Positions 8,650 through 39,747 of a stretch of DNA of 64,000 nt are shown piece by piece (positions within the stretch are counted from its first letter, which is position 1; each line of letters opens with the position of its first letter). Location of the stretch: sequence record MG673519.1. The stretch is one strand, 5' to 3'. The position numbers and the translations under genes are program-made. The stretch is from Escherichia phage LAMP. The notes below the pieces were generated by a model. The model made no database searches, was not told where the DNA came from, and saw only the letters and a program-made list of their open reading frames with translations.

Positions 8650-8709
8650 CCTATACAAGCCAGTGTGTAATGTATATTCTTTGTCTACATATAACAAGGA
8701 GGACAACCT

Positions 8710-34561: not shown

Positions 34562-34982
34562 ATTTTAATTTCCTTATTTAATTTGAAAGATTGTTGCTCT
34601 CTTTGAGCGGTTATGTATAGTATACATTACGCTTATACCGATAAGAGTACTATATAATATAAGTATCTTTGGTAGTAGATATAACACACTAGTAATGTAT
34701 ATATTGTATAGCTAATAAAGTTATTGCAGGCTTGTACATTGGGCAATTCATAGAATCCCTTGCAAGTACCGAAGGGCAGGAGCCACCTGCGAGATAAAAA
34801 TAGAGAATTAAGGAATCCTTGATTTAGGTTGTAGGGACTCCTAGGGACTTTGATTCTCTATTTAAAAGAATAAATAATTACTATATCTAATACTAAACAG
34901 ACTGAAACAAAGATAAGAAACTTCTTATAAATACTCATTACTTATCATCTAAATAGTTAACTAATCTCTGATATAAAGAAGT

Positions 34983-36461: not shown

Positions 36462-36943
36462 TTAGTGTGTATGCATCCAGTTTAACCCAATCTGACAATC
36501 AGAAGCCAGAGGACATTCCATGTTCAAGTACTCACCAGCCTTCTTAACACAAAGCTCGGTGTACTCTTTGAGTTTCTGTACATCATTACGGTTCACTGAG
36601 AACTGGCCCTCATCGTGCATATCAATTACCTTAGCACAACGAACTCCATCTTTCTCAATCCACTTGTTAAGGAACATCATAGCATATTTCATAACAACAG
36701 CACCAGCACATTGTAGGAGTGTGTTAAGGGCTTTATGAACCATAACCTTACCAGTGGCATCCCGTCTCATTGTAATCTTACGACCATCAACGCCAATCAA
36801 ATACCCTTGAGCAGCTTTCTCTGTCATACGATCAATGAGGATTGCAATACAAGGATTCTCTGCCAAGAAGCGTGCTCGCATCACTGAACCTTCGTCAGCT
36901 CCACCACCTACGATTGAACCAAGCTTAGCATCACCTGCCCCAT
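36462..36943 (-). CDS. DNA polymerase (family A, T7 gp5-like), exon 2 (palm C-terminal part, motif C)
   Basis: Frame open upstream of the track start (36884) to about 36943; contains VIDMHDEGQF (motif C-like). Joining to exon 1 reconstitutes ...RDNAKTFIYAFN|YGAGDAKLGSIVGG..., matching the motif B region of T7-type polymerases. Confidence 0.7.
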
Positions 36944-37247
36944 CAATAGTTCAAGCAAAGGCGCTACTCTTTGCTCCGTTCTCTTATGAACTGCTTACAG
37001 TTTCCTGTAAGATCGGACTATATCTTCATCTCCACCTTTACGTGCTGAGAGACAGGCGCTTCCGTAACACTTGTTACGTACTCCCTTCCGGGATAGTCTC
37101 TGAACTTTCCGTGACACAAACTTTTCTACATAGATCATTGATGTTTATGTCACGGCTTAGCTGCTGATTGGCATATCTTTCGACTTAGCTTTCCAGCAAT
37201 TCACCTGTTTTGCTTCTGCACATTTCTATGCAGTGAACCAATTATTT
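36944..37247 (-). ncRNA. Group I self-splicing intron (ORF-less, about 300 nt) within the DNA polymerase gene
   Basis: On the minus strand the core elements appear in order: P-like AATTGCTGGAAAG, Q-like AATCAGCAGC, R GTTCAGAGACTA, S AAGATATAGTCC. The upstream exon ends in U and the intron ends in G. Boundaries are +/-2 nt. Confidence 0.7.
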
Positions 37248-38610
37248 AGTTAAAGGCATATATAAACGTCTTCGCATTATCACGAGTAGGAAGACCAGCA
37301 AGTTTCTGGTTGTGGGAGTGGATATCACCTTCAAGAAGGATATCACGATACATAATAGCAGAAGCTAAACCACGTTCTGCCAGAGCTTTCTTAGCTGGAT
37401 TATTCTCTTCGATTGCTTCAGCAAGCATATCCCTACACTCTTTAATGAGGTAGTGAGCGAGCATACGAAGTTCAAGTCCAGAACCATCATACCCTAAGAA
37501 TACTTCTTTACCAGCGGGTATGTAATATTTGTAAGCACCTACAGGCTTATCTTTCTTCCCCGGCTTACCTTTCTCGTAAATTACGTTAGTACCTTTTCGT
37601 ATATAACAACCATCAGGAACAACGTTAGTAATAACGAAAGGACGAGAGTGATCACTGTCTGAATTATAGTCAGACTCAAACAAACTGCGACACTCATGAC
37701 CAAACAAACCACGGGAGGGAATATTAACCACGATACGATGTTTGAATCGAAAAGTTGGCGTAGCGCAGCTGTTAGCTTCTGCCGAAAGTTTACCATCTTC
37801 GCGTTCCTTTGCTATGAGTCCACTGATAAGACCTAGCCTGTGAGCCGCTACAACGCGCCTCTTAAGCAAACTTCCAACACTCCCTAGCTCGCCCCCTAAC
37901 CCTTCTTCAAGAGTCTCCTCGAGGTTTGTAGGAGCTGTAGGCCACTTGTTTGAGGTAGCTAGTGCTATCTTAATCTCATCAAACGTGATAGGTCTACGTC
38001 GGTTAGGGTTTAAACCTAAACCAAACACATAAGCCTTCATATAGTTCTTAGTCTTAAACCTAAAATGCTTCTCTAAGAACCTCCTAATATCTGCGTCAAC
38101 CATCTCGGCTGTCTGCTTCTGTTTAGCATTACCTCGCATCCAAGCTGAATACCACGCTTGGTATGTTCCATACTTTCGTATATCTTTCTTGATTTCAAAA
38201 GTATTCCAAGGTTTCTTTGATACGTTAAACTCTGGAGGAAGAAAACCCTCATCCATAAGGGCTTCTTTAACTCGTGCATCTTTCGATGGGTCAAAGTCCA
38301 CGTATTCAACACAGGTGAATGCTCCACCAATGTCTTCTCTCTTAAGGCCAACTCTATCACAATAGGCTTGAGGCCACTTCTGTAAAGCTCCAGACTTCTT
38401 AAATGGCTTCATATAAGTAGAGCCATCTAGTCTCATCTTAGGTAAGAGAGGGATCAGTTCTTTGTCGATATTAACAATAATCTCTTTAAGGAGGTGAACA
38501 TACCACCGAGCATTTCTTCGGTTGAAACTCACTCCGTGCTTCGCTTGCTTAGAGATTATATCAGCGACAGTCATCTCTGTCAAAAATGGGAGAGCGTCCG
38601 GGTTGCTCAC
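37246..38610 (-). CDS. DNA polymerase (family A, T7 gp5-like), exon 1 (through motif B); no 3'-5' exonuclease domain
   Basis: 454 aa; motif A-like LGYDGSGLELRMLAHY and motif B-like RDNAKTFIYAF; the stop codon lies at the intron junction. GTG start in the track. My base-level indexing of the 3' end disagreed with the track by 1 nt, so I kept the track coordinates. Confidence 0.8.
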   Translation of the reverse strand: MSNPDALPFLTEMTVADIISKQAKHGVSFNRRNARWYVHLLKEIIVNIDKELIPLLPKMRLDGSTYMKPFKKSGALQKWPQAYCDRVGLKREDIGGAFTCVEYVDFDPSKDARVKEALMDEGFLPPEFNVSKKPWNTFEIKKDIRKYGTYQAWYSAWMRGNAKQKQTAEMVDADIRRFLEKHFRFKTKNYMKAYVFGLGLNPNRRRPITFDEIKIALATSNKWPTAPTNLEETLEEGLGGELGSVGSLLKRRVVAAHRLGLISGLIAKEREDGKLSAEANSCATPTFRFKHRIVVNIPSRGLFGHECRSLFESDYNSDSDHSRPFVITNVVPDGCYIRKGTNVIYEKGKPGKKDKPVGAYKYYIPAGKEVFLGYDGSGLELRMLAHYLIKECRDMLAEAIEENNPAKKALAERGLASAIMYRDILLEGDIHSHNQKLAGLPTRDNAKTFIYAFN

Positions 38611-39307: not shown

Positions 39308-39340
39308 AGTTATTCCCTAAGAAGTTTAGTTTGGTTTATA

Positions 39341-39370
39341 TAAAAGAAAAGGCCACCCATTTGGGTAGCC
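39341..39370 (-). terminator. Candidate intrinsic terminator
   Basis: On the minus strand, GGCUACCC-AAAU-GGGUGGCC hairpin followed by UUUUCUUUU. Confidence 0.45.
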
Positions 39371-39375
39371 TTATA

Positions 39376-39693
39376 TTACGATGAGCTTAAAGCTCCTTTG
39401 CGTGCTCCAGCTGCTTTTCCAGCTCGATCACCACTTTTGCCGCCGTTTGAACGGTTTGAGCTGACTGATTCAACACGTAAGTTGCTTGACGCATTAGAGC
39501 CTCCAGACTTGACAGCTCGTTTGTGTCCAACGTCTTTACCTCTGACAGCAGCTTTTCCATCGCGCTTTTCAACGATGCGACGTGCACGGTGGCGCTGAGC
39601 ATCTCCGCTCTTGCTCCCAATGCCTGTCTCACCACGGGCAATTGCGGTACGTCTTTCTTGTGCATAATCTCTCTTTCCTACATGGTCTGCCAT
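39376..39693 (-). CDS. Gly/Arg/Lys-rich basic protein (possible KGG-type stress-protein-like)
   Basis: 105 aa; AAGGAG SD 6 nt before the ATG. An overlapping alternative-frame ORF (39387..39665) also looks protein-like. Confidence 0.4.
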   Translation of the reverse strand: MADHVGKRDYAQERRTAIARGETGIGSKSGDAQRHRARRIVEKRDGKAAVRGKDVGHKRAVKSGGSNASSNLRVESVSSNRSNGGKSGDRAGKAAGARKGALSSS

Positions 39694-39747
39694 TTAGAAC
39701 TCCTTAATATATCAGTGTACACTAAGGAGTATACATTATGAATGATG

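Follow-up and report, generated by a model that had tools for sequence, protein, structure and literature searches.

An Overlapping Pair of Open Reading Frames in a phiEco32-Like Escherichia Phage Is Best Read as One Gene for a Small HNH-Like Protein

INTRODUCTION

When two open reading frames (ORFs) overlap almost completely on the same strand and both translations look like plausible proteins, are both of them genes, or is one left open by the composition of the other? This question is raised by a locus of Escherichia phage LAMP (MG673519.1), a phiEco32-like (Gordonclarkvirinae) Escherichia coli podophage, of which we analyzed a stretch of 64,000 nucleotides (here, the window). A sequence-only reading of this DNA had noted two such ORFs in different frames of one strand and proposed that the locus might be dual coding or no more than an ambiguous call. 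The pair is present as described; both members lie on the minus strand, and the shorter occupies the +1 frame of the longer, with its ATG 28 nt downstream of the start of the latter.

39376..39693, minus strand: ORF1, 105 aa, ATG at 39693..39691; a basic, small HNH-like protein and the homologue of phiEco32 gene 58
39387..39665, minus strand: ORF2, 92 aa, the open +1 frame of ORF1, judged to be a noncoding shadow ORF

Among the 91 ORFs of at least 80 aa in the window, this is the most extreme same-strand overlap, covering 88% of the host ORF versus a median of 21%. Another overlapping same-strand pair, with products of 99 and 118 aa, is found at 41200..41499 and 41258..41614 (minus strand), where 81% of the shorter ORF is covered.

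Long open alternative frames of real genes, termed shadow ORFs, are a known artifact of gene calling and are usually discussed for high-GC genomes and for the opposite strand. Real genes embedded on the same strand are also found in phages, as exemplified by lambda Rz1, which lies inside Rz in the +1 frame, and by genes B, K, and E of phiX174. Such embedded genes keep features of their own (in Rz1, a lipoprotein signal and its Cys) and are conserved in sequence from host to host. On the basis of comparative, compositional, and structural analyses, we conclude, with a probability of roughly 0.9, that the locus in LAMP is one protein-coding gene, ORF1, and that ORF2 is not a gene.

RESULTS AND DISCUSSION

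ORF1 belongs to a widespread family of small phage proteins.

Profile searches with the ORF1 product retrieved PHROG 4590 over its full length (E = 1.2e-40; residues 4 to 101 versus profile positions 2 to 99 of 100). The family comprises 85 related protein clusters in a collection of 5.8 billion proteins, which extend down to 45% identity and are all about 100 aa in length, and a tblastn search recovered 253 matching phage records, distributed across phages of Escherichia, Pseudomonas (the LUZ24/PaP3 group), Aeromonas, Proteus, Salmonella, Cronobacter, Vibrio, and Synechococcus. Protein-level conservation of the ORF1 frame extends from E. coli phages to Pseudomonas phages (E about 1e-16). The composition of the product is consistent with the earlier description of it as Gly/Arg rich (G, 15%; A, 14%; R, 14%; S, 13%), with Lys also abundant and a pI of 11.5, and its codon statistics fit a coding-frame model better than a shifted-frame model.

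The genomic context is equally stable. ORF1 is placed between the PhoH and DNA polymerase genes, as it is in phiEco32, Bas92, SU10, and others, and the 1.6-kb stretch around it is about 98% identical to the BASEL phages Bas92 to Bas94 (97.9% to Bas92) and about 90% identical to phiEco32. Gene 58 of phiEco32 (phi32_58; YP_001671803.1) shares with ORF1 98.7% DNA identity, its position, and a TAATGTATA promoter (see below), and nothing material differs between the two. In the 26 related records whose annotation was examined, the ORF1 frame is annotated in 23, neither frame in 2 (NC-B and PE006), and the ORF2 frame in 1 (YW01).

The product has been detected in a close relative. The gp056 gene of SU10 is 99% identical to ORF1 at the DNA level, and its ORF1-frame product has a calculated mass of 10,827 Da; SU10 CDS 56 was identified by mass spectrometry as a 10.8-kDa protein with two peptides and 18.3% coverage (PMC4281155, Table 2), in a search against a database of predicted proteins only, ORF2 not being among them (PMC4281155). 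ORF1 is thus already annotated and partly characterized, with its promoter mapped and its protein detected, and the locus is an ordinary one.

A few labels in related records deserve mention. The ORF1 homologue is called "PhoH-like phosphate starvation-inducible" or "Cas8 protein" in OR757434 (XT18), PP989838 (VTCCBPA_211), and PQ863255/PQ863256 (Ptacy1532/1479), and neither label is backed by PHROG or Pfam searches with the ORF1 of the window. In PGN6866, a "hypothetical protein (x2)" lying under the match was considered as an annotation of ORF2 and rejected, as it is the adjacent upstream gene.

The neighboring DNA polymerase gene is itself interrupted. A group I intron at 36994..37257 (minus strand; Rfam RF00028, 100.8 bits, E = 9e-27) separates two polymerase exon ORFs, and the polymerase of Bas89 is likewise annotated as a join of two pieces. 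The intron follows the sequence ...NAKTFIYAFN, which we take to resemble the conserved motif B of family A polymerases.

37246..38610 and 36462..36884, minus strand: DNA polymerase exon ORFs, with the group I intron between them

ORF1 has its own promoter, ribosome-binding site, and terminator.

The flanks of ORF1 contain the following elements, given in the order of transcription.

39730..39738, minus strand: gp36-type promoter element TAATGTATA, an exact motif, 36 nt upstream of the ORF1 start codon
39700..39705, minus strand: Shine-Dalgarno sequence AAGGAG of ORF1, read from the sequence; phages Paul and SU7 have a ribosome-binding site annotated at this position
39339..39372, minus strand: intrinsic terminator found by a terminator scan, with a 10-bp stem (6 G-C pairs) and a 4-nt loop followed by TTCTTTTATA

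The sequence TAATGTATA is the single promoter element for the phiEco32 sigma factor gp36 and was reported upstream of phiEco32 gene 58 (PMC4331800); most relatives keep it at an equal distance upstream of the gene. The Shine-Dalgarno sequence, which reads AAGGAG from 39705 to 39700 and stands 6 nt upstream of the ATG, is as strong as the sequence-only reading had held. The terminator begins 4 nt past the ORF1 stop codon, has an annotated counterpart at this position in phage SU7, and lies in a region with 77% invariant columns across 34 relatives, and motif and terminator scans gave no promoter or terminator match inside ORF1. Together with the detection of the SU10 protein, the gp36-type promoter, the strong ribosome-binding site, and the terminator suggest that ORF1 is a short, self-contained, monocistronic transcription unit of the middle class.

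Elsewhere in the window, TAATGTATA recurs on the plus strand at 8669, 26157, and 34694 and on the minus strand at 34628, in addition to the copy at 39738, and a near-exact version, AAATGTATA, is found on the minus strand at 43743. The five exact copies and one near-exact copy equal in number the six promoters reported for phiEco32.

Between the promoter element and the start codon, we also noticed an inverted repeat, CTCCTTAGTGTA / TATATTAAGGAG, at 39700..39729 (minus strand), which is conserved along with the promoter in most relatives. It is foldable (-13 kcal/mol), and the resulting hairpin would sequester the Shine-Dalgarno sequence of ORF1. Transcription starts 6 to 8 bp downstream of the gp36 promoter element (PMC8948821), and a transcript that begins there would be without most of the 5' arm, so that only read-through transcripts could form the hairpin. 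The repeat may therefore be a way to limit the translation of ORF1 to the transcript from its own promoter.

The ORF1 product has a minimal HNH-like core.

An alignment of 40 diverse members of the family revealed that H57 and N80 are invariant and that G64, G65, N67, N71, and L72 are nearly so (N67, N71, and L72 in at least 90% of members). These positions define the motif (D/G)H-x(6-7)-GG-x-N-x(3)-NL-x(7)-N, which has the spacing of the HNH signature, where a catalytic His on the first strand is combined with Asn or His metal ligands on the helix. A conserved basic N-terminal helical region, RDYxQERxTAIxRGETG...GDAxRHRARR in the same alignment, lies ahead of it. In the structure model of ORF1, the motif residues are located on the strand 53-57 and the helix 77-82 of a predicted strand-strand-helix core, and the best structural neighbors of the model are HNH domains; some relatives were also named "HNH endonuclease" by their depositors.

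39448..39537, minus strand: HNH-like core of ORF1 (residues 53 to 82), with a strand bearing His57, a strand at residues 72 to 76, and a helix at residues 77 to 82 bearing Asn80

Sequence-profile statistics for this relationship are weak. The ORF1 of the window gave no match to HNH profiles at E of 1 or less; PF01844 was matched by 23 of 40 ORF1 relatives with a best E value of 5.8e-4, all of them under the gathering score; and a sequence-profile search of the PDB with the family alignment retrieved no nuclease, giving chance matches to ribosomal proteins only. Comparison with known HNH nucleases (PF01844, PF13392, the phage GVE2 HNH endonuclease [5h0o], and I-HmuI [1u3e]) indicates that the likeness lies in the motif spacing, the predicted core, and the structural neighbors. 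However, the HNH enzymes are mostly much larger than ORF1, and ORF1 is without the Cys/His zinc-binding pairs found in many HNH subfamilies, its product having no Cys at all. Further, the matched HNH structures have no counterpart of the basic N-terminal helical region, and the matches of ORF1 fall below every curated threshold. A further difference concerns codon 56 (39526..39528), at which Gly precedes His57 in the window and in the whole E. coli/Shigella clade, replacing the usual Asp that is found in the rest of the family. HNH nucleases have Asp (or Asn or His) directly ahead of the catalytic His, and this replacement in the D-H dyad possibly signals a changed or lost catalytic function.

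Taken together, the motif and the structural model suggest that the ORF1 product is a very basic protein of about 11 kDa with a minimal HNH-like (beta-beta-alpha-metal) core presenting His57, Asn71, and Asn80. Such a protein would most likely bind nucleic acid and may nick or cut it. We describe it as HNH-like, a putative member of the HNH superfamily. A gene of this family is found near the DNA polymerase gene in both the Gordonclarkvirinae and the LUZ24-like phages, as part of the replication gene cluster, a placement suggestive of a role in DNA metabolism. In LUZ24/tf-like phages, the DNA is nicked at specific sites by a nickase (PMC3517423). We considered the ORF1 family as a candidate for this nickase; no candidate gene is given in the tf paper, and a search of the literature revealed no link, so we treat the idea as a lead only.

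Purifying selection is seen in the ORF1 frame and not in the ORF2 frame.

Substitutions were analyzed in 24 distinct close relatives. The variable sites at codon positions 1, 2, and 3 of ORF1 number 26, 14, and 56, respectively. Because position 3 of ORF1 varies most, the second codon position of ORF2 is the most variable one, and every change there alters an amino acid. The ORF1 frame has a dN/dS ratio of 0.17 and the ORF2 frame one of 1.68, and the mean pairwise protein identity is 92% for ORF1 (minimum, 82%) and 75% for ORF2 (minimum, 52%). Changes that are silent in ORF1 are mostly radical for ORF2 (37 of 58; e.g., V to E, L to P, P to L, and G to E) and are no more conservative for it than random ones (BLOSUM score, -0.90 versus -0.99 ± 0.16; P = 0.29). 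The N-terminal 17 and the C-terminal 45 or so residues of ORF2 vary freely.

The codon statistics and the homology searches point in the same direction. The GC content at third codon positions of ORF2 is 0.63, versus 0.38 ± 0.07 for the genes of the phage (the long ORFs of the window), and its codons fit the model of a "+1 frame of a gene" better than a coding model. Searches with the ORF2 product found no PHROG family and, in Pfam, gave a single weak subthreshold match, to Spectrin_SYNE1 (E = 0.004; 17 bits versus a 35-bit cutoff). The tblastn matches of ORF2 in 50,697 phage genomes are confined to the same 98 E. coli/Shigella phages. As for its translation signal, the sequence AGGAAAG proposed as a Shine-Dalgarno sequence for ORF2 is present, but it ends about 10 nt before the ATG, a long spacing that makes the site weak, and it is lost in those relatives whose ORF1 begins with MTDKAK.

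The length of ORF2 is explained by the composition of ORF1.

If ORF2 is not a gene, its length and its protein-like appearance call for an explanation, and the composition of ORF1 offers one. Only 13 of the 106 codons of ORF1 have T at position 2 (0.12, versus a window median of 0.28), the lowest value among the high-overlap ORFs listed. Such codons are scarce because ORF1 has hardly any hydrophobic residues; stops in the +1 frame are rare in turn, because TAA, TAG, and TGA in that frame require T at codon position 2 of ORF1. The +1 frame thus stays open by the composition of ORF1 alone. The same reasoning covers the "helical" look of the ORF2 translation. Read one base off, the G/A/C-rich second and A/T-rich third positions of ORF1 yield codons for Leu, Ala, Val, Glu, Lys, and Gln, since a gene rich in G, A, R, K, and S gives GAG, GTG, GCG, AAG, CTG, and CAG when it is read out of frame.

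Simulations that keep the ORF1 protein bear this out in quantitative terms. A +1 ORF of at least 92 aa arose in 11% of synonymous resamplings with the codon usage of the phage, in 10% of codon-order shuffles, and in 27% of trials in which the synonymous codons of the gene itself were permuted; the longest +1 ORF averaged 64 to 82 aa. Across 150 distinct genes of the ORF1 family, taken from viral and metagenome contigs, 356 stops were observed in the +1 frame versus 359.6 expected under synonymous permutation (z = -0.4), and a gene contains on average 2.4 stops in the +1 frame versus 9.1 in the +2 frame. In 39% of these genes, a +1 ORF spans at least 80% of the gene, the sequences being unrelated. 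Several relatives at 65 to 72% identity have 4 to 7 stops in the +1 frame.

An invariant island lies within the overlap.

The sequence-only reading had pointed to synonymous-site conservation in related phages as a sign of dual coding. Such conservation does occur, but locally, in an island of 44 nt, while the rest of ORF2 changes freely and radically.

39569..39612, no strand assigned: invariant island, ORF1 codons 28 to 41, free of any change, even at synonymous sites, across about 35 distinct Gordonclarkvirinae sequences

The island is part of a wider zone of low variation at about 39470..39612 (ORF1 codons 28 to 75), and the codons of the overlap on either side, 10 to 27 and 76 to 102 of ORF1, vary freely at synonymous sites. 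Within the island, positions 39581 to 39610 are 100% invariant, and no other 30 nt are as conserved in the well-sampled portion (about 25 to 35 sequences) of a 3.3-kb alignment, in which well-conserved neighboring coding regions have about 63 to 67% invariant columns. The neighboring genes vary at 80 to 93% of their third positions; in the PhoH gene, the third position is variable in 80% of codons and the longest invariant run is three codons. The conservation is specific to the clade, as the same codons vary freely outside the E. coli phages, including in the LUZ24-like phages.

Locally suppressed synonymous variation is a classic signature of an overlapping functional element, and several candidates for such an element were considered and set aside. 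Searches of Rfam at E of 1 or less gave only subthreshold chance matches. A conserved RNA structure was not indicated by RNAalifold on 30 sequences (z = +0.28 versus column shuffles, with one doubtful compensatory pair); the fold of the single-sequence transcript has a z score of -2.5 and takes in the terminator hairpin. The island has no match in 5,426 E. coli genomes, which argues against an origin in the host, and of the island region a single, unrelated 11-mer is all that recurs in the window, which argues against a repeated sequence. Selection for translationally favored codons is also unlikely, because the low-variation region contains codons that are rare in E. coli, namely, GGA within the island and AGA and CGA shortly after it.

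ORF1 is a gene mosaic and a hot spot for homing endonuclease insertion.

The ORF1 allele and its flanks have different closest relatives: ORF1 itself is 98.7% identical to phiEco32 and 93.1% identical to Bas92, whereas the flanking DNA is closest to Bas92 to Bas94 (97.9% over 1.6 kb). This indicates that the gene is a mosaic. Among 30 sequences, 7 types of the 5' part and 10 types of the 3' part of ORF1 occur in 16 combinations, and this reassortment points to crossovers within or near the invariant island.

Free-standing HNH homing endonuclease genes abut the ORF1 homologue in several relatives, upstream in Bas86 and downstream in Bas89, EK010, EcoN5, YW01, and SGF2. The insertions change the last codons of the ORF1 homologue, and the window is without either insertion. 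ORF1 is thus a hot spot for the insertion of mobile endonucleases.

1116..1496 of L090; 1794..2288 of L092; 1797..2291 of L093; 2219..2713 of L003; 1818..2312 of L102 (YW01); 1808..2299 of L103, strand not given: HNH homing endonuclease genes inserted next to the ORF1 homologue

Alternative explanations of the locus.

The alternative that survives best concerns the island alone and is compatible with ORF1 being the only gene. It holds that 39569..39612 is a DNA or RNA element that does not act through a protein, such as the target of a homing endonuclease, a recombination junction, or a regulatory site, and that the persistence of ORF2 is a side effect of it. The degree and clade specificity of the conservation, the reassorting haplotypes, and the homing endonuclease genes that adjoin ORF1 in six relatives all speak for an element of this kind. 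However, the Rfam and alifold results, the absence of any promoter or terminator match in ORF1, and the absence of a repeat in the window or of a match in E. coli genomes do not favor it, and the same pattern, with no function at all, would result if a short tract, such as one with the clade-specific D56G, had recently swept by recombination. We regard such an element as unlikely. In light of the haplotype reassortment and the adjacent homing endonuclease genes, the island is at least as likely to stem from a recombination junction, a site related to homing, or a recent short-tract sweep as from coding.

True dual coding fares considerably worse. In this scenario, ORF2 would be a young overprinted gene limited to the Gordonclarkvirinae of E. 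coli and Shigella, started from an internal ATG and functional mainly through the central segment encoded by the island. Several observations can be cited in its favor. ORF2 is open (92 to 97 aa) and has its ATG in all of the approximately 30 to 35 distinct Gordonclarkvirinae sequences and in two relatives at 70 to 74% identity; no ORF1-silent change creates a stop in it, versus 2.65 expected (P = 0.038, a value that ignores both shared ancestry and the picking of the locus for its open ORF2); the island, without synonymous variation, lies inside the overlap; and the GenBank record of YW01 annotates the ORF2 frame. Against this stand the ORF2-frame dN/dS ratio above 1 and the radical nature of the changes silent in ORF1, the freely varying ends, and, directly beside the island, the replacement of leucines of ORF2 in one subgroup (L to H, L to P, L to S, and L to Q). 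Homologues of ORF2 are also missing beyond the clade, it falls into no PHROG family and no Pfam family above threshold, and stops in its frame are not depleted family-wide. Its ribosome-binding site, weak, badly spaced, and not kept in the MTDKAK-type relatives, lies 28 nt from a strongly initiating start, and its codons behave statistically like those of a shifted frame. Nor does the island save dual coding, as it spans only about 15 of the 92 codons of ORF2 and the remainder drifts. Hence, the dual-coding proposal finds no backing at this locus, where ORF2 is without a family, a promoter, or a conserved Shine-Dalgarno sequence, and it is highly improbable that ORF2 or the island encodes something that is translated. 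If it nevertheless did, ORF2, or at least its island-encoded part, would have been born inside a small HNH-like gene whose composition leaves the +1 frame open in many lineages, the family would be a natural nursery for de novo overlapping genes, and the locus would offer a clean case, amenable to experiment, of a gene born by overprinting in a phage group that is well studied.

The converse reading, with ORF2 as the real gene and ORF1 as its shadow, is suggested by the annotations in YW01 and by those of the corresponding frame in LUZ24 and PaP3 (see below), and it can be dismissed as next to impossible, since cross-group protein conservation is seen in the ORF1 frame only, the SU10 protein identified by mass spectrometry has the mass of the ORF1-frame product, dN/dS and codon statistics favor ORF1, and ORF1 is intact in YW01. 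What the sequence-only reading had offered as its second option, an ambiguous call, is thus the apt description, and the ambiguity is settled in favor of ORF1 by its family, synteny, promoter, Shine-Dalgarno sequence, terminator, purifying selection, and detection by mass spectrometry in SU10.

ORF2 and known cases of overlapping frames.

Comparison with the embedded genes of other phages supports reading ORF1 as the sole gene. ORF2 resembles lambda Rz1 and genes B, K, and E of phiX174 in geometry, being a short same-strand ORF fully enclosed in a longer one, in its +1 frame. Unlike them, it has no feature of its own, its dN/dS ratio exceeds 1, and the +1 ORFs of other clades are unrelated to it. 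With shadow ORFs, it shares a length explained by composition, the codon statistics of a shifted frame, and the capacity to mislead annotation, as in YW01, LUZ24, and PaP3. It differs from the cases usually discussed in lying on the same strand of a phage of 42% GC and in its cause, the near absence of hydrophobic residues from the protein of the host gene.

Misannotation in related phages and its implications.

The equivalent shadow frame has been deposited as a gene in three relatives.

3014..3283 of L185, strand not given: LUZ24 gp26, "contains transmembrane domain," a deposited CDS in the +1 frame of the ORF1-family gene
2514..2783 of L186, strand not given: PaP3 orf38, a deposited CDS in the +1 frame of the ORF1-family gene
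1529..1813 of L102, strand not given: YW01 XQW40834.1, a deposited CDS in the +1 frame

In LUZ24 and PaP3, a +1 ORF of 89 aa is the annotated gene and the conserved HNH-like frame is left unannotated. When the translations of these two phages are compared by eye, the +1 products differ at many positions and the ORF1-frame products at few, so that the former diverge far more; neither +1 product has detectable similarity to the ORF2 of the window. These observations argue further against ORF2 as the gene, and the CDSs of YW01, LUZ24 gp26, and PaP3 orf38 are probably annotation errors.

More generally, the locus carries a caution for phage annotation: a basic phage protein poor in hydrophobic residues leaves its +1 frame open, and the result is a convincing helical or even membrane-like translation. 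For the LUZ24-like phages, the correction gives them a small HNH-like gene beside the gene for the exonuclease subunit of the DNA polymerase.
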